DNA of 64,000 nt from Clostridia bacterium (GCA_017483195.1 JAFULR010000010.1:12673-76672); one strand, 5' to 3'. Counted from the first letter of the stretch, positions 7,136 through 36,823 are shown. Program-made: numbers and translations. Notes: generated by a model from the letters alone, not told the origin.

Positions 7136-7287
7136 ACAAGCCTGTTTTACCTTGTAGGGTGGGCTTTCTTGAAAATCGTTGGAATTTACAATAGATCCCA
7201 TAGCAATCTCTAAAGCCTTAATGCCGTGATAAGTTTAAAGTGTTTTAGCGATATTATTTTTGAGTCGGTTTTTGAGAGGAGAACAAA

Positions 7288-7722: not shown

Positions 7723-7740
7723 TAAATGGGTACCAGAATT

Positions 7741-9399: not shown

Positions 9400-10650
9400 A
9401 CCTCCTTGGGTGGTTGTTTTTATTGGTTTTTTGGGTTTTGTGTTTGGTGGAAGGTGATTTGGCTTTAGAACGGGAACGCCTTCCGTCCCGCTACGCCCCG
9501 CCCCCTCCCCTGCACCCCTCGCCGCCCCCGAGGGGAATGAGTGAGTGCGCTCTCGTAATGAGTGCGTAGCCGAAGGGTTTGCGGTGGGTGCCGATCCCTA
9601 CAAAAGTTAGTTTGGTTTTGGAGCGGACGCGCACAGCGCGCCCCTACGGGTTTGAGGAAAAAGCCGATTGTTTGTACAGACCGTGTTCCTCTCATCCACC
9701 TTGAAAACGCCGAAGGCTTTTTCTCAACCCCTTCCCCTCAGGGGAAGGCTTAGGTTAGTGCGCTTATGCACAAACTCGTAGGGGTCGGCGTCCTCGGCGA
9801 CCCGCGTTCGTGGGAAAGTAACTTTGCATTTGAAACTCTCCCACCACCACTTCGTGGTCCCCCTCCCTCGACAGAGGGAGGCAAGGGTTGTGCCGTTGCC
9901 CTCAACGTAGGGCGACTGTCTTGCTCCCGCCGGGTTGTAGGGAAAAGTACTTCACCTTTGGAAAGTCATAAAGACTCCTTCGTAGATCCCTGCGCGCCAA
10001 GGCGCTTGGTTTTGTCCGTTCCGCTTTGCTGCACTACCAAAACTTCGTCTCGCTGGCGCTCGCTCAGGATGACGTACAGACGGGGCGTTTGCGGTGGGCG
10101 GATGTTTGCTCGGGTCGTCGGGGACGTCGACCCCTACACAATATTAGTTTGCCTTGAAATCGGACGCGCACAGCGCGCCCCTACACGGGTAAGAGCGTCG
10201 CCGTGGGGTTTGTTTTTTGAATTTTGCATTTAGCGGGTGCACGGAGTGCCCCCCTACGAGAGCGAGAGCGTAGCCGAGGGGTTTGAGGTGGGCGGAGGGT
10301 TGCTCTGACGCGCACGAGAAACAAAGGTTAGTTGCCTACTTCGGCAAGAACGCGTCTTTGGTTGCGCCGGGGTTCCCCGAAGTGAGCAACGCGAGCTTTG
10401 GGGGTTCGCGGAAACGGAGTCGTAAGACGACGAGCGTTTTTCGACGGCGCGCCACTATTATTTTAGATAACCACAAAATTCCAAGCGCGGCGCGATGACG
10501 TATAGCCGTTTTGCTGGCGCGCCACTATTATTTGGGATAACCACAAAATTCTACGTGCGGCGAGGTGTCTATACAGGTTGGATATAGCTTTATAGTGTAT
10601 TAGTACGCAAAAAGCCGATATGGTATTAATATATCGGCTTTTATAGAATT
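9400..10650. repeat. mosaic array of GC-rich repeat modules (REP-like 24-mers, tandem 45-nt repeats)
   Basis: No coherent CDS; contains CGGACGCGCACAGCGCGCCCCTAC (x2); tandem GGCGCGCCACTATTATTTnnGATAACCACAAAATTC (x2); segments homologous to 12005..13120 in direct and inverted orientation. Confidence 0.8.
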
Positions 10651-13727: not shown

Positions 13728-13816
13728 GGAGGATTATCGAAGTGGTCATAACGAGGCGGTCTTGAAAACCGTTTGCCTTTACGGGCACGAGGGTTCGAAT
13801 CCCCCATCCTCCGCCA
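13728..13816 (+). tRNA. tRNA-Ser (anticodon UGA)
   Basis: Manual fold: 7-bp acceptor GGAGGAT/ATCCTCC; 3-bp D-stem; anticodon stem GCGGT/ACCGT with loop CTTGAAA; long variable arm; T-loop TTCGAAT; discriminator G plus encoded CCA. Confidence 0.85.
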
Positions 13817-21606: not shown

Positions 21607-24600
21607 TTATGCCGCCGCATTGGCGTTGATTTGGTCAATTATACTTTTAATACCGAGCCAGACTGACATATCGGTGAACACATCTACGATACTTCCTCTA
21701 TCGGTGAAAGGAGCTTCCTGCAAAACTGACATATCCCTCATCACACCGTTATGCACAATGTATTCGATGATTTGATTCACAAAATATATTTGATCCGAAT
21801 CAAGATTTGTGTTGCTCAGATAATCCGCGAACGCAGCTTTTGCAGCTGCCATATCAAGACCAACGATCTCTCTTACAAATTCACCAAGAGGTTTATCACC
21901 GCATTCTGCCTGATAGTCTTTTTGGCTTCCGACTTCACTCCAAAGAATATTCTCCAAAACCGCTATATCCTCTTCGTTCAACGGGATATTATTTCTAAGC
22001 TTGGTAATTACGTATTCATCCTGATGCTGACGAATATAAAACTCTGCCTTTGCTCTATAGTTTTGAAGATCTTCGCTTTCGAGATCTGATTCGTTCCAAT
22101 CAACCGACAAAATTTCGTCATTAAAATTAGTGATGTATTTAACCTTGTGTCTTGGAAGATATTTCATCAAGTCACGAAGATTTTCTCTTATATGCTCAAA
22201 TTCATTGATGCCCGCATTATCGAGATAATCTGTGTGCAAAATTTTGTTAATTAGTTCCGATTGTGCCATAATTTCGGGAATATTTGCTACGCTCGCAATA
22301 CCCGAAATCTTTTTATAAAGATCTGTGCGTGCGCGAGAATACTTCTTGCCTGCGAGATATGCAAGCTCAATTCCATACATAAGCGCGTCAAATCTAACTG
22401 CAGATGCCTCATCCTCATCGGGTATAATAAGTGGCGCAAGTTCTTCCGCGATCAACAAAGTATCTTCATATGTAAGAGAATTGCAATTATCGGGATTAGA
22501 ATATTCCTCAACGTAACGCAAGTGCTGACGAACAGCAAAGTTTTCTTTATTAAGCTCGCGAACTTTTCGAACCATATCGTCAACCAAAGACTTACGAAAT
22601 TCAATAAGATCGTTAGTTTGATAAACAATATCCTGCAATTTATATGCTATTTGTGCTTTCAATCTGAATATTGCTCCCTGCAATGCAATCTGGTTAGCAG
22701 TAGGACGTCCGTTGTTCATACGGAAAAATTCAAAGTTCCCGCAAAAATCGAAAATATAGAATTTATCTTTATCTTTGCCGTCCATAAGCCCATCACAACG
22801 ACGTGTGCCACGGCCGATCATCTGCCAGAATTTCGCCTTACTCATTACCTTCTTAAAGAAAACAAGATTAAGCACTTCGGGCACGTCAATACCCGTATCC
22901 AGCATATCAACCGAAATTGCAATTTGAGGTAGCTTTTTGGGATCAGAAAACTCGTCAATAGCACTTTGAGCATAGGTCATATAGTTATCAATGACCTTGG
23001 TATATCCGGGCAAATGTGGATACTCTTTACCGAAAATTTCGTGGATTTTTTCAGCATGCTCGTGATTTTTAGCAAATATGATCGTTTTGCCGAGCTTTTC
23101 ACCGTAGTCAATGCGAAGACCGTCTTGCATAAGAATGTGCAATACCTGACGAATAGTGTCCTCATTGAACACCCATTCGTTAATGGCAGAAGAAGCTATG
23201 CTCTCGGGCAAATCTCCATTTTCATCCTCAAACGTGTTTTCATATGTCTCTCTGTCTTCTTCGGAGAGATCATCGTAAACAATGCCTTGCTCTATAAATT
23301 TGAGCTTACTTTCAACTGATGTGAAATCGACAAGGAACCCATCAGTTACCGCCTGTGAAAGCTCATATGCATAGGTTGGCACGTTGGTCTCAAGCTCGAA
23401 AATATCATAAGTATTCTTATCAATTTCATCCTTGGGGGTAGCAGTCAAGCCGACCAAAGGAGCATCGAAATAATTGAAAATATCTCTGTATTTATTGTAA
23501 ATGGAACGGTGCGCCTCGTCCACGATAACAAGGTCAAAATGCCCTGTGGTAAGGAGCTTTTTATTATTCTCATCCTTGACGGTATCAATACAATTCATCA
23601 TTGTCTGATAGGTCGAAAATACGCAACGGGAATCAAAATTCTCTTTATCCTCACAAAGATTAGTTACAGACAGATCGGGCAGCATATTTACAAAAGCACG
23701 CTTTGCCTGTGTAACAAGAGAATTTCTGTCCGCAAGGAACAAAATATTCTTAACCCAGCCGTGGTCAAGCAACACCTTGCAAAGAGCGATAACAGTTCTC
23801 GTTTTACCGGAGCCGGTTGCCATAACGAGAAGCGCCTTTCTGCGATTCTTCTTGTCAAATGACTCGCAAACCGCCTTTATTGCTGCTTCTTGATAATAGC
23901 GTCCTGCAATAAGCTTGTCCACCATCACGTTCTTCAAGCTTGTCCTCATCGTTTGAAGATTGAAAAGCTTTTCAAGGTCGCGTTTTGAGTAAACGGATGC
24001 CACCTTGCGCTCGGGATAATACTTATCGTTCCAGATGCGCGTGTCAAAGCCGTTGGAGAGGAAGATTATCGGTCTGCGACCGTATTTTTGCTCCAAAAGA
24101 TCGGCATAGAGCTTCGCCTGCTGTCTGCCCTTGGAAACGTCAACGCAGGTGCGCTTTGCCTCAAGAACTGCAAGCGGTTTGCCATCATCTCCGTAAAGAA
24201 CGTAGTCCGCATATCCAACCTCGCTCTTGTTGGGCATTCCGTAAAGCTCGACCTCGTTTATCCAGTCCTTGCCCTCGGTCCAACCAGCATCCTGAAGCAT
24301 AAAATCAATATAGATCTTTCTCGTTTTGTATTCGGAAAGATCAAGCGGCTTAGGAACGTAGGTCTGCTGCTGCTCGGTACGGCGCGCGGTAAGCTCGTCC
24401 TTGAGCGCCTTGTTTTCTTCTATTAACTTGTTTATGTCGATATCTGCATCGGGCACGAACGAAAGCGCCTCTTGTGTAGTGAGCTCAAGCAAAGATCTGT
24501 CAAACTGCTGCTCCTCATAATCCGCGGAATAATAGCATGCAAGACAGTCAAGGAACACAAAGAGATTTTCAATACAAAGCTCTGCCTGCTCTTGAGTCAC

Positions 24601-24903
24601 CTTTCTTCCACCGTGAGCCGCATTGTTGCCGACCTTGCGAATGAAATCAAGACGTCGCCAAATGTCGTTACCGATCAAACGCCTAAAGCTGTCCTCACTC
24701 ATCAAGCTGACAAGGTTGTCCTGATAAGGCATAGCAAGATCGCGGTCAACGGAATACATCCACTTGATCGCAAACTCCATCGCCCTGCGGCAATTGATAA
24801 CGCAAGAATCGACGTCTATATGTAATATTTTCTCCGCCGATATCGCCACGTCCGAAAACGCATCAAAATCGCGGTTCTTTTTTAAGAAATCGAAGTTGGT
24901 CAT
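21607..24903 (-). CDS. hsdR: Type I restriction enzyme R subunit
   Basis: About 1100 aa; DUF4145-like N-terminus, SF2 helicase motifs (ATGSGKT, DEAH) and an HsdR C-terminal domain; start MTNFDFL with GAGGT RBS. Confidence 0.9.
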   Translation of the reverse strand: MTNFDFLKKNRDFDAFSDVAISAEKILHIDVDSCVINCRRAMEFAIKWMYSVDRDLAMPYQDNLVSLMSEDSFRRLIGNDIWRRLDFIRKVGNNAAHGGRKVTQEQAELCIENLFVFLDCLACYYSADYEEQQFDRSLLELTTQEALSFVPDADIDINKLIEENKALKDELTARRTEQQQTYVPKPLDLSEYKTRKIYIDFMLQDAGWTEGKDWINEVELYGMPNKSEVGYADYVLYGDDGKPLAVLEAKRTCVDVSKGRQQAKLYADLLEQKYGRRPIIFLSNGFDTRIWNDKYYPERKVASVYSKRDLEKLFNLQTMRTSLKNVMVDKLIAGRYYQEAAIKAVCESFDKKNRRKALLVMATGSGKTRTVIALCKVLLDHGWVKNILFLADRNSLVTQAKRAFVNMLPDLSVTNLCEDKENFDSRCVFSTYQTMMNCIDTVKDENNKKLLTTGHFDLVIVDEAHRSIYNKYRDIFNYFDAPLVGLTATPKDEIDKNTYDIFELETNVPTYAYELSQAVTDGFLVDFTSVESKLKFIEQGIVYDDLSEEDRETYENTFEDENGDLPESIASSAINEWVFNEDTIRQVLHILMQDGLRIDYGEKLGKTIIFAKNHEHAEKIHEIFGKEYPHLPGYTKVIDNYMTYAQSAIDEFSDPKKLPQIAISVDMLDTGIDVPEVLNLVFFKKVMSKAKFWQMIGRGTRRCDGLMDGKDKDKFYIFDFCGNFEFFRMNNGRPTANQIALQGAIFRLKAQIAYKLQDIVYQTNDLIEFRKSLVDDMVRKVRELNKENFAVRQHLRYVEEYSNPDNCNSLTYEDTLLIAEELAPLIIPDEDEASAVRFDALMYGIELAYLAGKKYSRARTDLYKKISGIASVANIPEIMAQSELINKILHTDYLDNAGINEFEHIRENLRDLMKYLPRHKVKYITNFNDEILSVDWNESDLESEDLQNYRAKAEFYIRQHQDEYVITKLRNNIPLNEEDIAVLENILWSEVGSQKDYQAECGDKPLGEFVREIVGLDMAAAKAAFADYLSNTNLDSDQIYFVNQIIEYIVHNGVMRDMSVLQEAPFTDRGSIVDVFTDMSVWLGIKSIIDQINANAAA

Positions 24904-24917
24904 ATAATACCTCACTA

Positions 24918-25556
24918 CTATATTTTCATATTACTCTTTTTCGTTTTCAAATTATCTAACTCTTCTTGTATTTGTTCATAATTCTTAATAATTTCTTCTT
25001 TATAATATTCGTGAGAGTCTGCTAACAATATAGCTTTATTCTTTACAACACGCAACATTGGATTATCTATAATTTGCGATAATCCCTCTCTGTTGCTTCT
25101 TCCAGATGCTTTCACCATATCTGTCATTATACTCAAAACCGCTATCTGCAATTCTCCAGATGTCTTGCTTTTTGTTTTTGAAAACCATTCGAGATTTGAA
25201 AGTTCCGACGAGATTTTTTTGATTCCGTTATATGTTTCATCATAATAATACTCCCATAACTTATCCGGAGTTTCTTCATCGGGGTTCAAAGATAATACAA
25301 TCAACAAATAATCAAAAAAGAAAAAATGCACATTAGATAAAATAGATTTGAGAGTTTTTTCTTGTTCGTATTTAAATTGTAAATATGTTGTAATAATAAC
25401 TACAACGATGCTACACGCAATACCTATCATATACTCCGACAAAAAAGAAACGATATTAAGCTTGGATAAACAGCTAAACTCAAAAACAAAAGATAAGAAA
25501 ACGCAAGCAAAAAATACAACAACACTATATTTCAATGTATTTTTATACAGTTTCAT
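24918..25556 (-). CDS. hypothetical membrane protein embedded between hsdS and hsdR
   Basis: 212 aa, 2 N-terminal TM helices plus a cytoplasmic domain; AT-rich; no known family recognised. Confidence 0.5.
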   Translation of the reverse strand: MKLYKNTLKYSVVVFFACVFLSFVFEFSCLSKLNIVSFLSEYMIGIACSIVVVIITTYLQFKYEQEKTLKSILSNVHFFFFDYLLIVLSLNPDEETPDKLWEYYYDETYNGIKKISSELSNLEWFSKTKSKTSGELQIAVLSIMTDMVKASGRSNREGLSQIIDNPMLRVVKNKAILLADSHEYYKEEIIKNYEQIQEELDNLKTKKSNMKI

Positions 25557-25567
25557 ATTTACTCACC

Positions 25568-26590
25568 TCACCCAAAATATTTTTGCATCAATGCTTTTTT
25601 TAGTGTTTCGAGCTGATTTAAGCTCTTTTGAATTTCAATTTTCGATTTGTCGATCTGTTCGACGAATGCAGTATATTCATTTTGCAGTTCTATTGGTGGC
25701 ATAATGTAATTTAATGTTTCCAAAGGCTTCTGTGTAATTTTAGGCTGTCCAGAAAAATCTGCATACTGGTAAAAGTCCATCATTCGCATCAGTTCCGTCA
25801 AGAACTCCAATGTATATGCATTTGTCTTCTGCTCTTTAATGTATATGGCATTATCAGTAATCCACACAGGGGTTGTAACTGCATGGATATTGCCACATTG
25901 TGCGCCTACCCGTCCAATAATTATAGTTGAATAGTCAACAAGAGATTCGCTTGTGTACCATGCAATTCCATTTCCACCATACACAGGAATACCTTCGTTA
26001 AGTCTTTTTTCTTCGGGCAGGAACTTGCCAGAGGAAAACTTGAATAGTTCACTGCCTGTTTTGCAATCAAAGCCTTTTTCGTTAATTCTGTAATCCCCAA
26101 ACATCTCGATAAATCGGGATTTGACGAGCTCGTCCAATTTTGCAAGTTGCTGTTTGCGTAGAGAAATTACACTATCAACTCGTTCAAGTTGCGCAACTAT
26201 CTCGACTTGTTCTTCAGTCAAATAGTCGGGTATCTCTATCTCTTTTAGCCACTTGAAATGTCTATTGTATCCCGTATTGGGAATATCGGCATTACAAAGC
26301 GCATAATACAAATACTTATAGTTTGCACTTTTGTCTTTTGCTTTCAAGAGTTTCACACCGTCTGCTCCAAGAAAACAAGGATTATCAATATATTTAATTA
26401 CCCTTGTATGATCACCAAAAACTATTGCTGGAACATCGATAAATAGACCCTTTTCTTCATTGGTATATCCGGCTATTTCTGACTGCCCTTGATCTATAAT
26501 AGGGTATAAGCCACTATCTAAATACAGATTGGTGGGGATTTTTGTTCCGAGTTTTGTAACATCCTCAAAAACATCTATAAATTTTGCCAT
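25568..26590 (-). CDS. hsdS: Type I R-M specificity subunit
   Basis: Two TRD-like halves separated by a conserved central repeat; C-terminal LKKALMQKYFG typical of HsdS. Confidence 0.8.
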   Translation of the reverse strand: MAKFIDVFEDVTKLGTKIPTNLYLDSGLYPIIDQGQSEIAGYTNEEKGLFIDVPAIVFGDHTRVIKYIDNPCFLGADGVKLLKAKDKSANYKYLYYALCNADIPNTGYNRHFKWLKEIEIPDYLTEEQVEIVAQLERVDSVISLRKQQLAKLDELVKSRFIEMFGDYRINEKGFDCKTGSELFKFSSGKFLPEEKRLNEGIPVYGGNGIAWYTSESLVDYSTIIIGRVGAQCGNIHAVTTPVWITDNAIYIKEQKTNAYTLEFLTELMRMMDFYQYADFSGQPKITQKPLETLNYIMPPIELQNEYTAFVEQIDKSKIEIQKSLNQLETLKKALMQKYFG

Positions 26591-26600
26591 CTCTATCTCC

Positions 26601-27035
26601 TTAAAACAATGATACTAAAGAAATAATTAACGCTACAAAACTAATTATTCCAGAGAACAACGCAAGAATATAATGCCTATCTTTTTCGCGCTTGACATCA
26701 TTAGACATTACTTTAATTATTACCGATATAACAAAACAAAGCACACACAAAACGAATATCAATAATAGACTTACTATGTTTCCAATTAATCTTTCTATGG
26801 ACCAATCAATTATTGCAATTGCAACATATATACTTGATGCAAATAGCAAAACAGATCCTATAGCCATCGCCCAAGCAAGTATTGCAAACAACAATGATGT
26901 GAACTCTTGCATAATGACACTATTTCCGTTTTCATCGGGCATTATAACCTCATCATTCCACAACTTCCAAAGCAATTTTATCCCTTTGGGCTCATTGCTT
27001 ACTTTTTTATTCTTATATTTTCTTTTTTTAGCCAT
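26601..27035 (-). CDS. hypothetical membrane protein (3 TM)
   Basis: 144-aa hydrophobic ORF between hsdM and hsdS. Confidence 0.45.
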   Translation of the reverse strand: MAKKRKYKNKKVSNEPKGIKLLWKLWNDEVIMPDENGNSVIMQEFTSLLFAILAWAMAIGSVLLFASSIYVAIAIIDWSIERLIGNIVSLLLIFVLCVLCFVISVIIKVMSNDVKREKDRHYILALFSGIISFVALIISLVSLF

Positions 27036-27366
27036 TAAAAATCTTCTCCTTTAGCCAATGAATTCCATAAATCAACAATCCAATTGCCGCAAGAATTATA
27101 AGAACCCACCACCAAGCAAATGAGAACAAACTCATAAGCCAAAGAATTCCTATAACGGTACAATATACAAGCAAATATAGCAATGCTCCCAAAGGTGGAA
27201 ACGACCCTTTTGAATATATAGTTCCAACTAACTTATACACAAGCAAATGAATAGGCGCTTCCACCACAAGATTAATCAAAATGGCATAATCACCAAAACA
27301 CTCAAAAGGATCTGGCAAGCAAAAAGTTCTTATCAACAAACTAATTACAACCATTATTTTATACAT
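27028..27366 (-). CDS. hypothetical membrane protein
   Basis: 112 aa, 3 TM helices; overlaps its neighbours by a few nt (operonic). Confidence 0.45.
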   Translation of the reverse strand: MYKIMVVISLLIRTFCLPDPFECFGDYAILINLVVEAPIHLLVYKLVGTIYSKGSFPPLGALLYLLVYCTVIGILWLMSLFSFAWWWVLIILAAIGLLIYGIHWLKEKIFNG

Positions 27367-28862
27367 TACAGCATCCCCTCCAGCTCTTTAAGTCCCTGCT
27401 GGATCTGCGCTTCAAGCTCGTTGATCTCGGCAAGGATCTGCGACGTGGGAGCATACTCCACAGGCTTATATTCGGTCTTTTTATACTTATTTATTGAGAG
27501 GTCATAATCGTTTGAAACTATCTCGGATTTGGGAACGAAAAAGCTCTTTTCGGTGCGCGCGCGATCAATTTCGCCATCACGGTTACGGAAGCGCGCGATA
27601 ATATCGGGAATATCGTTTGCCGCCACGGGTGTGCGCTTATCGTCAAGACTGAATCCGTCCGCGGTCATATCATAGAACCACACTTTATCCGTACCACCGT
27701 GACCTGTCTTGGTGAAGATCAGAATTCCCGTTGACACGCCTGCATAGGGTTTGAACACGCCCGAGGGCATCGAGATAACTGCTTCAAGACGGTTTTCATC
27801 AACAATTGCCTTACGGATCGCCTTGTGCGCTGTGGACGAGCCGAAAAGAACGCCGTCGGGAACGATAACCGCACATCTGCCGCCCACGCGAAGCATACGG
27901 AGCATCAATGCAAGGAACAAAAGCTCCGTCTTTTTTGTTTTGCAAACTTTGAGAAGATCGGGGGCAACCGTATCATAGTCAAGACTGCCCTTGAACGGTG
28001 GGTTAGCAAGGATAAGCGAATACCTTTCCTTATCCGTATTCTGATCGGACAAGCTATCACGGTATTCGATATAGGGGTTGTCCACTCCGTGAGTCATCAT
28101 ATTCATCGCACCGATACGAAGCATAGTTCTATCCATATCGTAGCCGTGGAACATACCGTTCATATAGTGCGCCTTCTTTTGTCTATTGAAGAATATCTCC
28201 TCTTTGCGCTTTTCTTTCAAATAATCTCCCGCCGAAACAAGGAATCCCGACGTACCGCAGGCGGGGTCACAGATGATCTCGTCTGCCCCGGGGTCCATAA
28301 GCTCAACCATCATACGAATAATGTGACGGGGTGTGCGGAACTGACCGTTAAGTCCCGACTGCGCAATTTTAGAAAGCAAATATTCGTAAACGTCGCCACG
28401 GATATCGGTATCCTTTATCTGCGACATTTTCTCATAAATATCGTCAAGTATAGTTACTATTTTATCAAGGAGCAAGGGTGTGGGGATCTTGAAGATCGCA
28501 TCATCCATATATTTGGAATATGCGCTATCCTTATCATCGTGAAGATTCTTAATAAAGGGGAAAACCCACTCCTGCACGGTAGCATACATCTTTCCCGCAG
28601 GAAAATCGTGGAACACCGACCACTTTAGCTGCTGACCGTCAATCTCACGCTCGCCAACCTTAACTTTATCTGCAAAAATACTCTTATGAGAAAGTCCGAG
28701 CATTACCGCTTCCTTAGCGCGAAGGTTATCCGTTTCGTCAAGATCGTGAATAAACATCAAATATGTAACCTGCTCGATTACGTCCAGCGGATTTACAAGT
28801 CCGCCCGTTGCAAATACGTCCCAAAGTCCGTCAATTCTATTTTTAAGTTCGCCTGTAATCAT
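27366..28862 (-). CDS. hsdM: Type I R-M N6-adenine DNA methyltransferase subunit
   Basis: HsdM N-terminal domain plus N6_Mtase motifs (NPPF, FLV(S)AG..); start MITGELK with AAGGAG RBS. Confidence 0.9.
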   Translation of the reverse strand: MITGELKNRIDGLWDVFATGGLVNPLDVIEQVTYLMFIHDLDETDNLRAKEAVMLGLSHKSIFADKVKVGEREIDGQQLKWSVFHDFPAGKMYATVQEWVFPFIKNLHDDKDSAYSKYMDDAIFKIPTPLLLDKIVTILDDIYEKMSQIKDTDIRGDVYEYLLSKIAQSGLNGQFRTPRHIIRMMVELMDPGADEIICDPACGTSGFLVSAGDYLKEKRKEEIFFNRQKKAHYMNGMFHGYDMDRTMLRIGAMNMMTHGVDNPYIEYRDSLSDQNTDKERYSLILANPPFKGSLDYDTVAPDLLKVCKTKKTELLFLALMLRMLRVGGRCAVIVPDGVLFGSSTAHKAIRKAIVDENRLEAVISMPSGVFKPYAGVSTGILIFTKTGHGGTDKVWFYDMTADGFSLDDKRTPVAANDIPDIIARFRNRDGEIDRARTEKSFFVPKSEIVSNDYDLSINKYKKTEYKPVEYAPTSQILAEINELEAQIQQGLKELEGML

Positions 28863-28864
28863 TT

Positions 28865-29926
28865 TTATTCTCCTTTTTCGTGATTCCACATATACGTTGT
28901 ATATCTTCCACCGCCGATTTTGAGGATCTCTCTACTCTTCAATAAGTCATTAAGCGCTCTTTGCACCGTTACCTGACTTATATCGGGGCATTTTTTCATA
29001 ATTTCTGTTTTTGTAATTGTTCCAAGTTTTTCTTTAATGATTTCGCGTATTCTTTCGGGCTTTGATAAATCATTTGACGAAAGAAGCTTCACTCTCAATG
29101 AAAACTCACGGTATGCTGCAACGATTACTGCAAGGTTGTACTGAACAAAAGGAATGTAATCGTTATCTCCCTCGTGCCAATTTGCAGAGCTGTTTTGAAG
29201 TGCCTCATAGTACGTTTCCTTTGTGTTCTCAATCATTTTTTCAATACTGATATATTTACCCACGATATATCCTGCACGGTACAATAGCAATAACGTAAGC
29301 AAGCGGCTCATTCTTCCATTGCCGTCATTAAAGGGATGGATGCACAAAAAATCCAAAACAAACATAGGAATAAGAAGAAGCGGATCTGCCTCGTTTTTAG
29401 CCATCATTTCGTCGAAAGCTGCACATATTTCATCTATTGCACCGGGTGTTTCAAAAGCTGAAAGCGGTTGAAAGCGAACACGTCTGTTTCCGGCTTCATC
29501 CTCTTCCTCAATTACGTTATCGGATCCCTTATATTTTCCACCTATGGATTTACCGCTAAATTTATACAAATCTCTGTGCAACTGTAAAATAATGGAGGGC
29601 TTCACGGGGATATAATCGTGATTATCGTGTATTGTAGCTAACACATCACGATAGCCCGCAATCTCCTGCTCGTTGCGAGTGCGGGGCGTTGTCTTGTTCG
29701 TAACAAGACTTTTTAATCTATCGTCCGAGGTGTAAATACCCTCAATTTTGTTTGATGCCTCAGTGCTCTGTATTTTTGCAACCTCAACAAGCTGAGTAAG
29801 GGTATCCGCTTTTGCTTTTATAAACAAAGTTTGCTCGCCCTTGTATTCGTGAATTTTGGTGAGCAAAGATACAATTTCGGGTATCAAAAGCTTTTGCCAT
29901 TTATTCTCATAACTATAATTTCTCAT
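28865..29926 (-). CDS. Fic/DOC family protein with C-terminal wHTH
   Basis: Canonical Fic motif HPFNDGNGRMSR; 353 aa; first gene of the R-M operon. Confidence 0.85.
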   Translation of the reverse strand: MRNYSYENKWQKLLIPEIVSLLTKIHEYKGEQTLFIKAKADTLTQLVEVAKIQSTEASNKIEGIYTSDDRLKSLVTNKTTPRTRNEQEIAGYRDVLATIHDNHDYIPVKPSIILQLHRDLYKFSGKSIGGKYKGSDNVIEEEDEAGNRRVRFQPLSAFETPGAIDEICAAFDEMMAKNEADPLLLIPMFVLDFLCIHPFNDGNGRMSRLLTLLLLYRAGYIVGKYISIEKMIENTKETYYEALQNSSANWHEGDNDYIPFVQYNLAVIVAAYREFSLRVKLLSSNDLSKPERIREIIKEKLGTITKTEIMKKCPDISQVTVQRALNDLLKSREILKIGGGRYTTYMWNHEKGE

Positions 29927-30170
29927 AATAACCTCTTAAAATATATTTTTCTACATATATTATACCCTTATTATGATCATTTGTCAACATCAATTTAATC
30001 ATTTTTTGAATAATGATCAAATTGAAAAATTATGATAATATTATACTCCCTAATATATAATACCTGTTTTTTCGCCAAAATTCTTCAAAAAAACAATAAA
30101 AAATCTATTTTTTCAAAAAAGAAAGCACCGAACGAGATTTTGCTCTCGCGCGGTGCTTATGTTTGTGTAT

Positions 30171-31379
30171 TTATTCAGCTGCCTTGAAATTGTATATGGG
30201 CTTGATTCTGCGAACAATATCGGCTGTGGGGCCTATATTTTCGATGATCTCATCCATACTCTTATATGCCATGGGGGACTCGTCGAGTGTGTCGGGAAGG
30301 ACACAGGTTGAGTAAATGCCATCCATCTCCTTTTCGTACTCCTCCATAGTAAGGCGCTCAAATGCGGCGGTACGTGACATAAGACGTCCCGCACCGTGAG
30401 GTGCTGAAAAGTTCCAGTCCTCGTTGCCCTTACCAATGCAAATAAGAGATCCGTCCCTCATATTGATGGGAACGAGGAGCTTCTCGCCAAGCTTTGCGGA
30501 AACAGAGCCCTTGCGGAGAATCATCTCACCAACGTCAATATAGTTATGAATGGTCTGGAAAGTATCAACAGCGGTCCAACCACATCTATCAAGAATAATC
30601 TCCGCCATTTTTGCACGGTTTCTCTCGGCAAATTTTTGGCAGATATCTACGTCGTGAAGGTAGTCATCCATAAACGAGCTATAGAGATAGCAAAGATCGT
30701 GAGGCAAGGTGGGATTTTTCGCTTTAAAATCTTTATCAAGCATCTTTAATGCTGCTTGAATTTCAGCTCTTCTGCCCTCTTCCTTGTATGTACGTATGAT
30801 CTCTTCGCGTTGCTTAAAATATTCCTCTTTACCTATGTTAAGGTCAACTGCAAGTTGCTGATAAAAATCTGCCACCTGAGTGCCAAGGTTACGGCTACCC
30901 GAATGAATAACGAGATATTTACCGCCATCCTCATCGACGTCCACCTCTATAAAGTGATTTCCGCCACCGAGCGTGCCAAGCGATCTTTCAAGTCTTTTGG
31001 TATCCCTGAGATTTCTGTAGCAGCGAAGAGAGGTGAGGTCAAATCTCTCGTTTCTTCCTTCCCAAACGTTTCTGCCACAGGGGATATAGTGAGCCGCCTT
31101 GTCAAGCTTCTCAAAGTCAATATCTATCTTTCCAAGGTAAACGGTGTACATACCGCAGCCGATGTCAACGCCCACCATAGCGGGCACTATTTTATCGGTA
31201 ATTGTCATAGTTGTACCTATGGTACAGCCCTTGCCCGCGTGAACGTCGGGCATTATTCTTATTTTGGATGAGGCAAATGCCTCGGTATCGCAAACCGCCT
31301 GTATCTGCTCACGCACACCATCCTCAAGAGTTGTCGCAAAGCATTTTGCGGTGTTGAATTTGCCTATAATCTCTATCAT
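30171..31379 (-). CDS. rtcB: RNA-splicing ligase RtcB
   Basis: RtcB signature residues/motifs (DVHAGKGC, GGNHFIE, PHGAGR); 402 aa. Confidence 0.85.
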   Translation of the reverse strand: MIEIIGKFNTAKCFATTLEDGVREQIQAVCDTEAFASSKIRIMPDVHAGKGCTIGTTMTITDKIVPAMVGVDIGCGMYTVYLGKIDIDFEKLDKAAHYIPCGRNVWEGRNERFDLTSLRCYRNLRDTKRLERSLGTLGGGNHFIEVDVDEDGGKYLVIHSGSRNLGTQVADFYQQLAVDLNIGKEEYFKQREEIIRTYKEEGRRAEIQAALKMLDKDFKAKNPTLPHDLCYLYSSFMDDYLHDVDICQKFAERNRAKMAEIILDRCGWTAVDTFQTIHNYIDVGEMILRKGSVSAKLGEKLLVPINMRDGSLICIGKGNEDWNFSAPHGAGRLMSRTAAFERLTMEEYEKEMDGIYSTCVLPDTLDESPMAYKSMDEIIENIGPTADIVRRIKPIYNFKAAE

Positions 31380-31448
31380 AATCTTCTCCTATAAAAATAC
31401 GGTCGGGCATTATCATCTTATGACAACAATGCGCCGACCATATCTTAA

Positions 31449-32552
31449 TTAGGCATTATTGCCGTGAAGGATTGATGTAAGCTGCGTAAGTACGTCAGAG
31501 CCGGAACCAATGTTGATGTTGCCGACATTCTCACAAATGCGCTCAACATACTCAAGCTCCTTAAGCTTATAAAGGGTTTTGTTTTCGTCCATAAGCTTAG
31601 CTGTATTGAGCAAGGATCTGGTCGATGCGACCTCCTCACGTCTTGTGATTACGTTCGCTTGAGCTCTCTTCTCGGCAACGAGAACGGTATTCATAATATC
31701 GCGGATTTCACCGGGAAGGATAATATCCTTAACTGCTGCATCCGTAATCTCGATATAGAGATTTTTCTCCTTTGCCTTGAGCTTCTCAAATACGAATTTT
31801 GACATACCGTCCTTGTTCTCAAGAATCTCATCAAATTTGTACTTACCCACGTACTCACGAAGGGCGAGTTGGGCAGCTACGTGCAACTGCTCCTCGTAAT
31901 TATTGATCTCGGTGAAAACCTTGATACAGTCAGTTACTCGGTAATTGCACACAAAATTGATACGAAGTGATACCTTATCCGCAGTAAGCATCTCTTGACC
32001 CGTAATATCCATCTGAGTAAGACGTGTATCAACAATATCAACGTCAACCTTAACAGATGTTCTCCAGAAGTAGTAAACACCTGCGTCAAGCACCTTGGCA
32101 AGCTTGCGATTGAAATAGATCAATGCCTTTTCATACTCACCAACCTCAACTCTAATGTAATAGAGTGTAGGAATCTTTGAAAACAGATGCTCGGGTATGG
32201 ATTCATCTACCTCTGGTGTGGTAATATCAACAACTGTGAATTCGTGCTTATCAACATCATTCCAATAAGCATACTTACCTGTTTTAAGTACACCTGCAAA
32301 CTTTCCGTTAACATAGTGAAAAGCAAGCTCGGTGTCTCCCACCTCACACACTGCTACGCGAGTAGCAAGCTCCTTGTTCTGAAGCAAGGTCTCAAGAGCA
32401 CATCTGTTAGAAGTGATCTGCTGATCAAGAGCGAGCAAATCCACAAGCTTGCCGCCCATGAGCCAATACTTGCCTGCTTCAAGCATCTTAACAAATTTTC
32501 CGTTTTTGAAAAGCAATCCTCTCTGCTTCTCTGTGATAATGATTTTCTGCAT
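31449..32552 (-). CDS. SPFH/band-7 (stomatin/prohibitin-like) domain protein, soluble
   Basis: 367 aa; central SPFH-like beta-rich region followed by a long coiled-coil/helical tail typical of slipins; no N-terminal TM helix. Confidence 0.6.
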   Translation of the reverse strand: MQKIIITEKQRGLLFKNGKFVKMLEAGKYWLMGGKLVDLLALDQQITSNRCALETLLQNKELATRVAVCEVGDTELAFHYVNGKFAGVLKTGKYAYWNDVDKHEFTVVDITTPEVDESIPEHLFSKIPTLYYIRVEVGEYEKALIYFNRKLAKVLDAGVYYFWRTSVKVDVDIVDTRLTQMDITGQEMLTADKVSLRINFVCNYRVTDCIKVFTEINNYEEQLHVAAQLALREYVGKYKFDEILENKDGMSKFVFEKLKAKEKNLYIEITDAAVKDIILPGEIRDIMNTVLVAEKRAQANVITRREEVASTRSLLNTAKLMDENKTLYKLKELEYVERICENVGNINIGSGSDVLTQLTSILHGNNA

Positions 32553-32835
32553 ATATGTATTCCTCCTTAGAGTAATTTAGTCGTGCCAAACGCCGTTCAT
32601 GGGAAAATCACGGCCGAGGATTTAAGTGCATCGAGCAAAGCACGGAGCATATAGCTTGGCACTTATTTCAAATACACGGTATCCTTCCTCGGACAAAGCG
32701 ATAATCGCATTTGCTACTCACGAGAAATAATTTCTCGCTTTTGCCGAACGGCATCAGCCTGGATTCTCAAAGCACTTTTGCACTTTGTTTTGTAGTTCTT
32801 CCTTAAGAACATCAAGTACCATACCGCTGGCAAGC

Positions 32836-32862
32836 TATTTTCACAGCTCGGTGGGATTCGAA
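32836..32862 (-). ncRNA. tRNA-like T-arm/acceptor mimic (part of a putative structured ncRNA; not a full tRNA)
   Basis: Minus-strand GTGGGTTCGAATCCCACCGAGCTG: 5-bp T-stem, canonical TTCGAAT T-loop and 7-nt 3' acceptor-like strand; no matching 5' acceptor, D- or anticodon arm. Confidence 0.45.
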
Positions 32863-33053
32863 CCCACGATAATAGGGGTGAGTCAAAACATCTTGACACA
32901 TTTCACCTTAGCGCTACAACTTAACAGGTTGTGCTATCGCAAGAGATCTTCTGACATACGCTTTGGTACACCTCGCGCATCGCAGTGGTTTTTCATACAC
33001 TCGCTTGAAGTACCTTGCAAGCATATTTTACCACCCAAGAAAAGCTTTTTCAC

Positions 33054-33095
33054 GGAAAAAAAGCTGCGAAACCACATAATTTCACAGCTTTTTTG
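33054..33095. terminator. weak bidirectional hairpin flanked by A-run/T-run
   Basis: AAAAAAAGCTG...CAGCTTTTTT downstream of the WYL gene stop. Confidence 0.3.
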
Positions 33096-33103
33096 ATATT
33101 TTT

Positions 33104-34015
33104 TTACTTAATTTTGCAATCAAATTGCTTCTGCAGCTTATTTTTCATAAGCTCTACGAACGGCTCGGGCTCGATAACTTCAACGAGAGGTCCAAACGAA
33201 AGTATTCTTATTACCATTTCCATCTCGTCTGCGTGATCGTATTTGATATGAACGAGATAATGCTTTCTGTCAAGCTTTTCTGCCTGCTTTTCAAAATGGG
33301 CAAAGTGCAGCATCACTCTTTCAAGTGCATTTCTATCGTCGGTTATCTTTAATGTAACGGTATCCATTCTTCCTTGATGCCTATGCTCTTTGGGTGTAAA
33401 CTCACCATTACAACGTGCTACCGAAACGATCTTTGACAGATTGATGACTGTCAAAAATCTGCATCCACTTGTAATAAGACGGAATTTATCGTCTTTTTCT
33501 GAGTATTCAAGTCTTACGGGAAGGCACTTGGCGTAGATATTTTGCCCTCTTACATTTTTCATATTGATCTTAACGGGAGTTTTGTTTCTGATCGCGTTGA
33601 GCAGATAGCGAAATCTTCCTACGTATGTTCTGTCCTCATAGTTATCACCGTCATTATATCGGTCAAAAACATAGTAGTCCTCTTGTGTGAAAAGAGGTTC
33701 AACATCGTCAAATCCCTCAAATTTAACACCGAAAAGCTTGATTCTGGGATCAAGAGAGATCGACTTCAACCATCTTTTTTGTAGGGTTGTAAGAGGCATA
33801 GTAGGTTTATGCTCAATAGCAGTGGTAAAATCACGGGTCATTACCTGCCATTTTTCGCTCTTTATGGCATTCATAATAGTAAAGGCACTGTCGCCAAAGG
33901 CATTTTCCTCAACGATTTTTTGCGCTGTCTTGCTGTCAACGTTGCTCTCTACCATAGCGGAGAGTATTTTTGCTACCGTGTTATAGTAAACGGAGTAAAG
34001 CTCACTGAATATCAT
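33104..34015 (-). CDS. WYL-domain transcriptional regulator (WYL + WCX)
   Basis: 303 aa; C-terminal RILSFGPLVEVIEPEPFVELMKNKL resembles the WCX extension of WYL regulators (PafC/BrxR-like). Confidence 0.6.
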   Translation of the reverse strand: MIFSELYSVYYNTVAKILSAMVESNVDSKTAQKIVEENAFGDSAFTIMNAIKSEKWQVMTRDFTTAIEHKPTMPLTTLQKRWLKSISLDPRIKLFGVKFEGFDDVEPLFTQEDYYVFDRYNDGDNYEDRTYVGRFRYLLNAIRNKTPVKINMKNVRGQNIYAKCLPVRLEYSEKDDKFRLITSGCRFLTVINLSKIVSVARCNGEFTPKEHRHQGRMDTVTLKITDDRNALERVMLHFAHFEKQAEKLDRKHYLVHIKYDHADEMEMVIRILSFGPLVEVIEPEPFVELMKNKLQKQFDCKIK

Positions 34016-35271
34016 TCGCTTACCTCCTTCCCGATTCCGTAAATCTCATACATTCTCTTAAGGTCTCCCTTGAAGCGGTTCTCGGCTGTACGGTTTGAGA
34101 AATCCATTTGCGTTATGCGACAAATAAAGGTCCTTATCCACGGGACAAGCTCGGTCGTATCATAAACGTCAGCAGAAAATCTGTACGTGTGATCGTCAAG
34201 CTTTTCAACGTTGCCGATCCTCTTTTCTCTATAGAGGCGGCGGACGATATATTCCTCATTGTCGGCAACATTAATGATAAATTCAACGTGTTCAAGATGC
34301 TCCTGCTTATATGCATTTTGCCTTGTGTTGACTCCCCACATCTTGGTCTGCATATCGTCAAGACGGGCACGAAGGTCATCAAAATTATCACAAACATCAA
34401 GGGGCTTCACGTTGGAAAGATAATCCACACGGTAGGACGTGATGCAACTGAACTGCGTTTGATAAGCAAGAAGATACTGTCTGCCGTTCTGCACGCTTAT
34501 AAATATGCGAAGCGGCACTATTTCGGCAAGTCTTGGCTCATCGTGTTTACGGTTGAGGTTGTTTGCGGTGATCGCACGCTTTTGCCTCATCGCATCAAAA
34601 AGGCAAGCGAGAACATCGGAGTCCATGGCGCTCGTTATGTAATGATGCTTAAACGTGAATGAGCTATCCGTCTTTTCTTCCTTGTCAAGCAGGAAAGAGC
34701 CGACAGCACCGCAAGGAGCGATCTCCGAAAAGTAGTCAAGCGCGTCCTTAATATCAACGGTGTCGATATGCTCGCTTCTTGAGTACGTTACCTTTCTTCC
34801 TTGCTTACTTGTGATTATTAAACCCTCGCTGCAATATTCCTTCAGCTTCTTGCGAATGGTGGACTCATCGAACATCATAGGAGCTTCAAAGCCCGAAAGA
34901 TATTTTTCGTCGATTATTTCCATAATCTCGGCAAGGGTGAATTCGACGTCGGGAGAATGCAAAATGTCAAAAATGATAAAATGCAAGGTGATATCGCCAT
35001 CGGTAAAGCTCTTTGCCTTCAATGCCTTGTAAAAGGGATTGTGCACCGACGTGCGACTGTCTATGGAGAGAAATACGTTCTTGCCCTCGGGTGTGCGAAC
35101 AAAGCTCATATAATCGCCGAGAATACTTTCCATTCTGCGCTTTTCATCGTCATAAGAACGCGCGCTCTTTTTGTCATAGTCAGCGCGGCTCTTAAATCCG
35201 TAAACGTAGAATTCCCGCATATACGAACGCACTCGCTCAAAATTCTTTATAAGCTCGTTATATGATGACAT
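34012..35271 (-). CDS. WYL-domain transcriptional regulator (wHTH + WYL + WCX)
   Basis: 419 aa; N-terminal wHTH-like region, central YLLAYQ (WYL-like) region, C-terminal ELVPWIRTF..RMYEIYG WCX-like region; 4-nt overlap with the downstream WYL gene. Confidence 0.55.
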   Translation of the reverse strand: MSSYNELIKNFERVRSYMREFYVYGFKSRADYDKKSARSYDDEKRRMESILGDYMSFVRTPEGKNVFLSIDSRTSVHNPFYKALKAKSFTDGDITLHFIIFDILHSPDVEFTLAEIMEIIDEKYLSGFEAPMMFDESTIRKKLKEYCSEGLIITSKQGRKVTYSRSEHIDTVDIKDALDYFSEIAPCGAVGSFLLDKEEKTDSSFTFKHHYITSAMDSDVLACLFDAMRQKRAITANNLNRKHDEPRLAEIVPLRIFISVQNGRQYLLAYQTQFSCITSYRVDYLSNVKPLDVCDNFDDLRARLDDMQTKMWGVNTRQNAYKQEHLEHVEFIINVADNEEYIVRRLYREKRIGNVEKLDDHTYRFSADVYDTTELVPWIRTFICRITQMDFSNRTAENRFKGDLKRMYEIYGIGKEVSE

Positions 35272-35646
35272 GTTTTGCTTCTCCTCTCCAATATATCTAT
35301 ATTGCGATTATACCATATTTCTACATAAATATCAAGCATCGATGCAAACTTATTCAAAGACAAAGCAAGCGAGCACTTAGGTGCTCGCTTTTGTAGGTAT
35401 TATTTCTTCTTTCTCCCCGTGCCGCTTTGGTGAACGGGCGGGTCATCGGAGTGGGAGAGGATGTAAGATCAGATATGCATGATCTTCGTCACGTAATTTT
35501 CTAAGCCCACCATAAAAATCGAACATGTCGCAAATGATTTTATTATTTTCCCAATCATGCAGGATAATGCCAAATTCTGCCTTTTCATAACCCTGGGCTC
35601 TTAGTCGTTATTTGGTTGTTTATTCGTTGTTTTATTTACGCTTTCA

Positions 35647-35883
35647 TTAGAATTCCACCTGTATAAAGAAGAGTCCTTCCTTATTGTTACACGAAATATA
35701 TGCCACATTATCATCTTTTCCAAACACATATCTTAATCTTTTTTCAAAATCTGCTTGAGAAAGTGGAGTATCTAATTCATAAGTTGACTCTGTAATTCGT
35801 ACGCCTTTATATTGTTTCACAAAATCATAAAACTTTTGATAATCGTTACCTTGCCTAATATCATAAGTAACTATTCTTTTCAT
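35647..35883 (-). CDS. hypothetical small protein with Cas2/VapD-like sequence pattern
   Basis: 78 aa; MKRIVTYDI...GVRITESTYELDT...DNVAYIS parallels the Cas2 pattern (M.VLVTYDV...G.RVQNSVFEC...DSVRIY); no cas1 or CRISPR array nearby. Confidence 0.35.
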   Translation of the reverse strand: MKRIVTYDIRQGNDYQKFYDFVKQYKGVRITESTYELDTPLSQADFEKRLRYVFGKDDNVAYISCNNKEGLFFIQVEF

Positions 35884-35901: not shown

Positions 35902-36504
35902 TTACTTTTTCGATCCTTTGCCAGACAGCTCCATAATTTTGGCGATAGATTCTACTCCGTTAGGCGATTCCATAGCTTTGAGCATAAATCTCATACCTAC
36001 TTCTTCGGCCGTCATCTGGCTTCGATTGCCTTGGTCTTGTTGAGCAACTGCGCTCGCTTGGGAGATTTGAGCCCTGCGAAGTGCAGTTTCTTCAAGTATT
36101 TTAGACGAAAGTCCTTGAGGGTAGTAATACTTTTTTATATTTTCCCAATCAATACCCTCACAACCGGTGCACTTTGCTATTTCTTCCAGCAATCTCAAGT
36201 ATTTATCATTGATATCGGTATCGTTGCTCGGATTATTAGGATTTTTTGCTGCATCGTCCGCCGCAGACAAAAACTTTTTCCAACACTCTCTAACTTCCTT
36301 GCTTTTGTAAAACACCACTTCGACACGGTTTAATGCTTCAACATTATCCTTATCAGATATCAAATATCTGTGCGACATCAAAATCTTGAAAATTTCCTTT
36401 TTGTCCTTTTTTGATTCGGAAATTTGCTGATAAATGATAGTTGTGATAGTTGCAATAAGTCCGGAAATAAGCGATGTAATAACTACTATCCATACGTTGT
36501 CCAT
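35902..36504 (-). CDS. hypothetical membrane-anchored protein
   Basis: Start MDNVWIVVITSLISGLIATI (N-terminal TM helix) then a helical domain; 19-nt gap to the upstream small gene. Confidence 0.45.
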   Translation of the reverse strand: MDNVWIVVITSLISGLIATITTIIYQQISESKKDKKEIFKILMSHRYLISDKDNVEALNRVEVVFYKSKEVRECWKKFLSAADDAAKNPNNPSNDTDINDKYLRLLEEIAKCTGCEGIDWENIKKYYYPQGLSSKILEETALRRAQISQASAVAQQDQGNRSQMTAEEVGMRFMLKAMESPNGVESIAKIMELSGKGSKK

Positions 36505-36823
36505 ATTTTTTGCTCCTTTTAATTTAATCCTAATTCTTAAAGACATTTTGTTATCTACTTCTCAATTTCGGCAATTTGAGTCTTGCCTTGATGTTTGTTT
36601 TAATTAGAAAATCTCTTTATAGGGCAACTCGGGGCGCAGTTTTGTACAGCGCCCGGAGTTGCCATGTGTGCGTTCAGCGATATGTTTTTAGTACGGTATC
36701 GGGAACGGGTTATTATGTGTAAAGCTCAACGAAGTGTTTTTATTACAGCTTCGGGAGCGTGGGCGCTCAGCGGTGGGCTTTTGGTGCGTCACCGGAGCGC
36801 GGGGGGGATTTTCTCAATTCGGA

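Follow-up and report, generated by a model that had tools for sequence, protein, structure and literature searches.

A candidate inducible RNA-repair ribonucleoprotein operon of the Band-7/SPFH-RtcB type in Clostridia

In a 64,000-nucleotide stretch of a Clostridia bacterium genome (GCA_017483195.1 JAFULR010000010.1:12673-76672; hereafter the window), we analysed a minus-strand operon at positions 30,171 to 35,271, in which two genes for tandem WYL-domain regulators (WYL1 and WYL2) are followed by a gap of 551 nucleotides (nt; 32553-33103), a gene for a soluble SPFH/Band-7 protein and a gene for the RNA ligase RtcB. The gap holds a conserved structured RNA of ~440-470 nt, which runs from the -10 element of a promoter to the ribosome-binding site of the SPFH gene and which accompanies SPFH in nearly all related loci. 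Together, these parts probably form an inducible operon of the Band-7/SPFH-RtcB type that encodes a ribonucleoprotein for RNA repair.

Conservation of the operon

The original prediction had named four genes on one strand, interrupted by a structured non-coding gap of about 550 nt, and all four open reading frames (ORFs) were found on the minus strand, with a 4-nt overlap between the two WYL genes. Profile searches bore out the identities it gave to the SPFH and RtcB proteins (Table 1). When aligned to P. horikoshii RtcB (4dwr), the ligase, whose gene is separated from that of SPFH by a 69-nt spacer, keeps all of the motifs MPDVHAG, VDIGCG, GGNHFIE, IHSGSR and APHGAGR, which hold its metal-binding residues and the GMP-histidine. 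The stretch had also been called AT-rich, a description that did not stand: its GC fraction of 0.39-0.45 is unremarkable against the window's range of 0.33-0.57.

Relatives of the SPFH protein were collected in a scan with one genome per species, which yielded 220, and the best 80 of these 220 were kept as loci, their SPFH proteins being 51% to 99% identical to that of the window. These loci belong to Oscillospiraceae, Acutalibacteraceae, Lachnospiraceae, Erysipelotrichales such as Dielma, and one Phascolarctobacterium genome bin; the cultured strains Hominibacterium faecale SF3, Dielma fastidiosa JC13 and Alloiococcus sp. CFN-8 are among the carriers. The order WYL1, WYL2, gap, SPFH is kept in 48 of the 54 loci that offered enough upstream sequence, and RtcB lies at most 900 nt 3' of SPFH in 52 of the 69 loci in which this could be tested. 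Thus, the predicted four-gene arrangement recurs across the 80 species-level loci and, because it does so in species-representative genomes with SPFH identity down to 51%, is by this comparison of sequences far beyond chance; the operon is likewise conserved in gut and rumen Clostridia. Searches with the SPFH protein and with WYL2 each returned ~7,000 protein clusters (at 90% identity).

The loci differ in what surrounds SPFH. Where RtcB is absent, unrelated genes stand 3' of SPFH, except in L070 (1684-2451) and L077 (7119-7886), in which RlaP occupies RtcB's place (PF10127; E = 2e-93 and 4e-81, respectively). RlaP, of the 'RNA repair pathway DNA polymerase beta family', is a nucleotidyltransferase associated with RNA ligases. 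Loci of the L038 type carry a 203-amino-acid (aa) ORF (7200-7811) between SPFH and RtcB, and L018 has an inserted ORF with a DUF4275 domain (2298-2699). In L018 (2732-3951) and L049 (5347-6545), RtcB appears as two overlapping tblastn fragments, while the WYL genes and SPFH are intact and the 3' domain of the RNA is detected.

Regulators, operator and promoter

The two regulators were predicted to resemble the tandem, translationally coupled PafB/PafC pair in layout, and they do: in 39 of 50 loci, the end of the first gene runs into the start of the second by 4 nt or 1 nt, and the top fold match of WYL2 is PafBC. A WYL (Sm-like) domain is supported in both, as had been claimed, though by different evidence. 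In WYL1, it is found by Pfam (E = 2.4e-6) and by the PADLOC WYL model, which covers residues 212-386 (1.5e-11). In WYL2, the Pfam search gave no WYL domain, and the support comes from the PADLOC model (residues 133-296, 1.2e-9) and from the fold: a Foldseek search with its AlphaFold2 (AF2) model (mean predicted local distance difference test, pLDDT, 80.6) returned PafBC on RNA polymerase at the top (9fnd_Y, 2e-8), and then DriD, PafBC 6sj9, BrxR and CapW. The WCX-like C-termini that had been assigned to both proteins hold for WYL2 (Pfam WCX 1.7e-5, 25.5 bits against a cut-off of 23.9), whereas the match in WYL1 remains below threshold (E = 0.05, 14.4 bits).

Regarding DNA binding, residues 115-185 of WYL1, its presumed winged helix-turn-helix (wHTH), show weak PaaX (0.022) and ArsR-type matches, while the N-terminal helices of WYL2 fall inside the full-length fold alignments and match no profile for a winged HTH. 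The first ~110 residues of WYL1 match no Pfam family; they may form a second, divergent winged-helix module before the ArsR-like one. Few regions of WYL1 are as well conserved as residues 1-110, where Tyr, Arg and Asp are invariant at many positions (e.g., SARSYDDERRR). BLASTP between WYL1 and WYL2 was not significant and hhalign gave a probability of only 14%, such that their common ancestry rests on the family models they share. Searches of the PDB with the single sequences returned no match for either protein, and profile searches returned marginal ones (E = 0.03-0.5 to PafB/PafC for both, along with weak matches of WYL1 to BrxR and ArsR-family chains). Judging by these values, WYL1 and WYL2 are not PafB/PafC orthologues.

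Directly 3' of the WYL2 stop lies an intrinsic terminator hairpin of the WYL operon, which in most related loci spans the stop codon itself. Its left arm varies between loci by G-U-compatible changes, whereas its right arm is invariant. This 3' arm, the U-tract and CCGTG together make up the 20-nt sequence TTCGCAGCTTTTTTTCCGTG, which occurs as a single copy in the window and is matched exactly, once each and always at the same position, in 53 of the 80 loci; it is also kept, without the hairpin, in loci where the WYL genes are not upstream. Because the left arm drifts while the right arm is fixed, and because the motif persists without the hairpin, we read the 20-mer as an operator to which protein binds and which serves at the same time as one arm of the terminator. 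It is followed by an extended -10 element, TGGTAAAAT, with no consensus -35, that place being taken by GTGAAA. Of 57 distinct promoters, 50 have the operator and the -10 spaced by 20 nt, and 38 have the TG of the extended -10. The WYL operon has a promoter of its own (Table 1), upstream of which stands a terminator-like hairpin (35367-35390). As predicted, then, the gap is non-coding and structured (z = -5.3 for its folding against shuffles), but its content had been underestimated, the regulatory site and the large tRNA-like RNA having both been missed.

This architecture is reminiscent of PafBC and DriD in its two adjacent HTH-WYL-WCX genes, in the best fold match to PafBC on RNA polymerase, and in a promoter of the regulators that is separate from that of the target. 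PafBC target promoters, like the one described here, have a canonical -10 and no -35, with a PafBC element at -26 (PMC8635444). Moreover, PafBC levels stay constant under DNA damage and the factor, the only heterodimeric WYL factor reported so far, is activated by ligand binding (PMC11804915), a mode of action that a separate near-consensus WYL promoter fits. The differences are that the regulators are not orthologous, belong to Firmicutes and not Actinobacteria, and have their operator at about -52 to -33; that the target is an RNA-repair operon and not a DNA-damage regulon; and that the neighbours are RNA-repair and defence genes, with no pup-proteasome context.

The same site would also suit a repressor of the BrxR/CapW kind, occupying the -35 region until the WYL domains bind single-stranded nucleic acid. 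The operator does overlie the -35 position, BrxR and CapW are significant fold matches of WYL2 (ranks 16-28), and single-stranded DNA is sensed by CapW-type repressors (PMC11662680). Yet there is no recognisable -35 that a repressor could mask, a distance between operator and -10 held rigidly at 20 nt is typical of activator-dependent promoters, and the best fold matches of WYL2 are the activators PafBC and DriD. We regard activation by the WYL pair as the likelier mode of control, and repression as possible though rather doubtful.

A structured RNA linked to SPFH

The RNA was examined in a sequence-only MAFFT alignment of 43 non-redundant loci (A1). RNAalifold found 55 base pairs in A1, 48 of them with compensatory changes. 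In an independent count of 54 of the A1 pairs, 90.9% of cells were paired, as opposed to 37-46% when the partners were slid, and 540 cells had changed on both sides, as opposed to 81-153 in the slid controls; none of 500 shuffles reached the observed values. The G-U pairs are compatible with the gene strand only. In the 5' domain, helix A is 97.7% paired, with compensatory changes, while the short stem P2 was drawn by eye, from A1 only. The helices of the 3' domain (4-9 of the pair count) show 83-94% pairing and many double changes, and its long arm carries the invariant elements GGAUACCG (32677-32684), CUUAA (in 32621-32628) and GCCG.

Between these domains lies the tRNA-like part. The T-arm motif GGTTCRANTCC is found in most gaps, and the T-stem, which is 97.1% paired, shows compensatory changes at all 5 pairs. 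For the hairpin that follows, the 3' strand was out of register between the rows of the MAFFT alignment, hence each sequence was tested separately against shuffles: 45 of 46 distinct sequences have a hairpin of at least 5 bp that starts at most 3 nt from the T-arm (median 7 bp, 36 distinct stem strands), compared to 39% of the shuffles. The T-stem and this ~7-bp hairpin would together form a 12-bp stack, like the acceptor/T minihelix of tRNA, i.e., a mimic of the tRNA top half.

Two candidates were rejected during this analysis. A de novo search for long-range pairs proposed a helix between the 5' strand of the T-arm and the 3' domain (columns 273-277/541-545), which we consider a G-U artefact of G-rich and pyrimidine-rich strands that competes with the well-supported T-stem. 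A 61-aa ORF inside the RNA (32714-32899) is regarded as non-coding because the region shows base-pair covariation and indels.

A covariance model built on the 3' domain (R1) has a single match in the window (116 bits, E = 2e-27), and it matches once each in 77 of the 80 SPFH loci, always upstream of SPFH and on the same strand. Among the loci compared, the structured RNA is thus the most tightly conserved partner of the SPFH gene. It matches no catalogued family: with Rfam 15 at gathering score, the whole window gave only a tRNA-Ser at 13728 and no family in the gap; a scan of the gap at E <= 10 gave only a 16-bit T-arm fragment and spurious hits, with no Y RNA or YrlA family; and Rfam gave no match in the gaps of six related SPFH-type loci. 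One of the hits, to FuFi-1, was dismissed as spurious, as it scored 27.9 bits against a gathering score of 59.6 and covered the terminator hairpin only. Of 48 related loci, just 2 have a gap in which ARAGORN predicts a tRNA.

The two parts of the RNA appear to follow different genes. Two IMG/VR contigs (L081 and L082; Table 1) carry the operator and WYL1-WYL2 followed by RtcB, with no SPFH gene, and the R1 3'-domain match is absent from both; conversely, 17 SPFH loci that lack RtcB retain the RNA, so the 3' domain tracks SPFH. In the same contigs, an element downstream of the operator passes the Rfam tRNA gathering score (in L081, it is a tRNA-Met gene), and thus the tRNA-like part tracks the WYL-operator-RtcB unit. 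A phage-borne origin of the operon was considered and rejected: only two IMG/VR contigs carried the operator or a WYL1 relative, both of them without SPFH.

The anticodon-arm-like hairpin has a counterpart in ~25 loci, whose CU-NNN-AA loops display GUU, GUC, GUA, UUU, UUG, GAC or UGA. These loops raise the alternative that the RNA is mainly a decoy or sensor, being cut there by ribotoxins and resealed by RtcB, with the fragments serving as the WYL ligand, an idea that is compatible with a scaffold role. The 'anticodons' GUU, GUC, GUA, UUU and UUG match the tRNA targets of colicin E5, PrrC and zymocin-type nucleases. The loop also differs between loci whose four proteins are 91-99% identical and whose stem is the same (CUGUUAA in the window and L078, CUGACAC in L001 and L002), and the adjacent hairpin differs between the same pairs of loci, which indicates faster evolution here than elsewhere in the RNA. 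In addition, tRNA fragments activate the RNA-repair regulator RtcR (PMC7790460). On the other hand, more than half of the loci have no CU-NNN-AA loop, the variation could be drift of CU-KU-N-AA at one or two positions, and no nuclease partner was identified. We think it doubtful that this is the RNA's main role.

The RNA could instead be a purely cis-acting leader of SPFH and RtcB (riboswitch-like, attenuating or processed) and not a trans-acting cofactor or scaffold. In line with this, no terminator parts it from the SPFH ribosome-binding site, and the distance from the end of the 3' domain to that site is ~30 nt in most loci. However, in five loci (L019, L025, L044, L059 and L063) the 3' domain ends ~650 nt before SPFH, which argues against a simple device for masking the ribosome-binding site; in L019, this interval holds an uncharacterised ORF of ~200 aa. 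Furthermore, no alternative terminator/antiterminator folds were seen, a size of ~440 nt with a dozen or more helices is far above that of known leaders, and the 3' domain follows the presence of SPFH, not that of RtcB. A purely cis-acting leader is therefore unlikely in our view.

As for the SPFH protein itself, it matches the Band_7 profile and has the SPFH alpha/beta fold with a long helix after it. In its AF2 model (a monomer), the N-terminus is built of three five-stranded beta repeats of ~60 aa; the SPFH core comes next, and long C-terminal helices, modelled at low confidence (pLDDT <50 at residues 299-350), complete the chain. The motif NGKF..L.AGKY..W is common to the repeats, the third of which opens the canonical Band_7 domain. 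As predicted, there is no transmembrane or hydrophobic segment (the maximal 19-residue Kyte-Doolittle value is 0.84), nor an N-terminal membrane anchor or hairpin. Two homologues, P0122 (638 aa) and P0136 (496 aa), have 7 and 5 such repeats (NGKF..L..GKY..W), respectively, compared to 3 in the window protein. A repeat stack of variable length before an SPFH core is reminiscent of the major vault protein. A classical role in organising membranes or proteases, with RtcB and the RNA adjacent by accident, is highly improbable: homologues are annotated as 'slipin family' or HflC-like and membrane-cage SPFH proteins are the best fold matches, but the protein lacks a membrane segment and an NfeD or FtsH partner, its linkage to the RNA is near-universal (77 of 80) and that to the WYL pair and RtcB is frequent.

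Table 1. Coordinates of the operon, its RNA and regulatory elements, and neighbouring genes. Positions refer to the window, apart from those of the two IMG/VR contigs.
Feature	Coordinates	Strand	Description or basis
WYL operon promoter	35307..35335	-	Near-consensus sigma-70, TTGATA-17-TATAAT with TG; sequence read
WYL1, 419 aa	34012..35271	-	Conserved N-terminal region, ArsR/PaaX-like winged HTH ~115-185, WYL 220-289, WCX-like C-terminus
WYL2, 303 aa	33104..34015	-	Divergent wHTH-WYL-WCX-type regulator; start overlaps WYL1 stop by 4 nt
Intrinsic terminator hairpin of WYL operon	33056..33094	-	A-tract, stem, U-tract; directly 3' of WYL2 stop; 3' arm is operator sequence
Predicted operator TTCGCAGCTTTTTTTCCGTG	33051..33070	-	Invariant 20 nt; ~-52 to -33 from presumed transcription start
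Extended -10 TGGTAAAAT	33025..33033	-	Predicted promoter of RNA-SPFH-RtcB; no consensus -35, GTGAAA there
RNA 5' domain	32953..33001	-	Stem P2 32984-33001; helix A with capping hairpin 32953-32981 (GAUGCGC...GCGUAUGUC); RNAalifold on A1
Anticodon-arm-like hairpin	32916..32932	-	ACAAC-CUGUUAA-GUUGU; 7-nt loop, U at position 2, 'anticodon' GUU
Second hairpin of variable region	32877..32907	-	GGUGA...GUCAA-loop-UUGAC...UCACC; single-sequence fold only; region varies between loci
tRNA T-arm mimic	32851..32867	-	GUGGG-UUCGAAU-CCCAC; partial tmRNA/tRNA T-arm match in Rfam E-value mode
Three further hairpins	32795..32849	-	~7-bp stem abutting T-arm 32832-32849; CCAG...UGG 32819-32830; 32795-32810; block alignment with covariation
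RNA 3' domain, 180 nt	32585..32761	-	Closing helix 32747-32755 with 32589-32597, variable hairpin, long irregular arm
SPFH ribosome-binding site	32562..32568	-	AAGGAGG; sequence read
Soluble SPFH/Band-7 protein, 367 aa	31449..32552	-	Pfam Band_7 1e-30
RtcB RNA ligase, 402 aa	30171..31379	-	Pfam RtcB (PF01139) 2e-56, 192 bits against cut-off 27
Cas2-like and DUF6680 pair	35647-35883, 35902-36546	-	Just upstream of WYL operon
HsdM	27366-28889	-	Type I system
Two small membrane-like ORFs	26601-27366	-	Type I system
HsdS	25568-26590	-	Type I system
Unassigned 212-aa ORF	24918-25556	-	Type I system
HsdR	21607-24915	-	Type I system; N-terminal DUF4145
L081 operator	6232-6251	-	IMG/VR contig; RtcB ~2.2 kb from operator
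L082 operator	9826-9845	+	IMG/VR contig
L082 tRNA-like element	9932-9994		IMG/VR contig; in the leader

Proposed mechanism, related systems and significance

In the inducible RNA-repair operon that we favour, WYL1 and WYL2, two diverged wHTH-WYL-WCX proteins whose translation is coupled, would be expressed from a near-consensus promoter of their own and would probably form a heteromer. They would bind the invariant 20-bp site, which is fixed at 20 bp before the -10 of a promoter that has no -35 and whose -10 is often extended. Damaged or single-stranded nucleic acid on the WYL domains would then switch transcription on, by analogy with PafBC, DriD and RtcR. A single transcript would then carry the ~440-470-nt structured leader, SPFH and RtcB, in that order. 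The leader would present the tRNA top-half mimic (the T-arm on its ~7-bp hairpin), one or two anticodon-arm-like hairpins and the 180-nt 3' domain, the last being a candidate binding site for an oligomeric ring or cage of soluble SPFH. The tRNA-like part may position RtcB or tRNA substrates, as YrlA does with Ro60 in the Salmonella rsr-yrlBA-rtcBA operon, or may alternatively bait anticodon nucleases. Where ribotoxins have cut tRNA or rRNA and left 2',3'-cyclic-phosphate and 5'-OH ends, RtcB would reseal the RNA.

The pairing of RtcB with SPFH had been put forward as an undescribed module, and this claim of novelty was wrong, since the pairing is already described. Burroughs and Aravind predicted in 2016 that RtcB adjoins a Band-7 protein and a tRNA-like 'b7a-tRNA', with a proposed scaffold or cofactor role in RNA repair analogous to that of Ro60 and Y RNA; in 2018 the system was described as not experimentally validated (10.1101/312249). 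The Band-7 branch of RtcB systems has apparently never been tested experimentally. Like those systems, the operon joins RtcB to a Band-7 protein and a tRNA-like non-coding RNA, and some related loci include an RlaP nucleotidyltransferase. In contrast, the b7a-tRNAs are said to 'strongly resemble an authentic tRNA', whereas the RNA of the window, which tRNA detectors pass over, is ~440 nt long with extra 5' and 3' domains, and is tRNA-like only in its T-arm, the abutting stem and the anticodon-arm-like hairpin. The P. aeruginosa rtc locus likewise embeds an SPFH gene, PaFlo8, in an RtcB RNA-repair locus, but is under RtcR control and includes RtcA (PMC13086221). The searchable literature yielded nothing on tandem WYL control, the invariant operator, the RNA's large size and extra domains, or the linkage of the 3' domain to SPFH, although the 2016 paper may mention some of these. 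The main interest lies in the uncatalogued large tRNA-mimicking RNA and the well-defined regulatory architecture, the combination of RtcB, SPFH and tRNA-like RNA having been predicted in 2016.

The rsr-yrlBA-rtcBA operon of Salmonella and E. coli offers a further parallel, as an inducible operon that joins RtcB to a ring or scaffold protein that binds RNA and to a non-coding RNA that mimics tRNA (10.1101/312249), inducibility being presumed in our case. There, the regulator has a ligand-sensing domain for nucleic-acid fragments (PMC7790460), and by analogy the WYL domains may serve this purpose. The window operon differs in having no Ro60/TROVE, RtcA, sigma-54 activator RtcR or Rfam match to Y RNA/YrlA; SPFH stands in place of Ro60, and the WYL pair in place of the CARF-type RtcR. 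The RNA is about four times as long as YrlA. The eukaryotic vault particle (major vault protein and vault RNA) is also among the closest known systems.

Several considerations weigh against the proposed mechanism. The support for it is computational throughout, from sequences and models. RtcB does not adjoin SPFH in 17 of the 69 testable loci, and its fragments in L018 and L049 suggest frameshifted pseudogenes; the WYL-RNA-SPFH core may therefore act beyond ligation. In the window, the RNA is not a full tRNA, the gap being negative with both ARAGORN and the Rfam tRNA model, and its identity with b7a-tRNA is putative. With no terminator before the SPFH ribosome-binding site in the window, the RNA could act only in cis. 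Regarding control, the related WYL regulators BrxR and CapW are repressors, the operator lies further upstream than the -26 element of PafBC, and part of its conservation could have other causes, as it is also the 3' arm of the terminator.

The surroundings fit the role in RNA damage or conflict that the original prediction had suggested, the operon being flanked by a SoFic-like Fic gene, a type I restriction-modification system and a Cas2-like gene; by this gene content, it sits in a defence island. Directly downstream of RtcB, a Fic-domain protein (28865-29926, minus strand; PADLOC SoFic model, 4e-35) has its own perfect TTGACA-17-TATAAT promoter (29987..29959). A complete type I system (21607-28889, minus strand) is also downstream of the operon. 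On the other side, a DUF6680 protein has as its neighbour an orphan Cas2-like protein of 78 aa (Pfam 4.8e-7; several PADLOC Cas2 models). No TROVE or sigma-54 activator domain, and no NfeD or FtsH partner of SPFH, was found among the operon and flanking genes tested. The only canonical tRNA gene in the window, tRNA-Ser(UGA) (13728-13816, plus strand), is unrelated to the operon.

Taken further, the components could amount to a 'mini-vault-like' bacterial ribonucleoprotein, a picture that we offer as speculative and improbable as a whole. A soluble SPFH cage, its wall height set by 3-7 beta repeats, would bind the ~440-nt RNA through the 3' domain; the RNA, with its mimics of the tRNA top half and of the anticodon arm on display, would bait or sense anticodon nucleases and give RtcB a place to dock; and a heterodimeric WYL activator, the second known, would respond to RNA and not DNA fragments. 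In that case, gut and rumen Clostridia would harbour thousands of members of a new class of large, structured bacterial non-coding RNA.

RtcB systems are widespread, and their physiological substrates and cofactors are poorly defined. The operon offers four parts through which they may be approached: a promoter and operator that are precisely defined, a WYL regulator that may be the second heterodimeric one and is found outside Actinobacteria, an SPFH protein that is soluble and freed from the membrane, and a large tRNA-mimicking RNA, backed by covariation, that Rfam lacks. A second heterodimeric WYL factor, in Firmicutes, would be notable if true. With this family, one may ask how cages of SPFH proteins can work together with RNA, whether damage to RNA can be sensed by WYL domains, and in which capacity, scaffold or decoy, tRNA mimics serve in RNA-targeting conflicts. 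The family also bears on the proposal that SPFH proteins and vault particles are linked in evolution.

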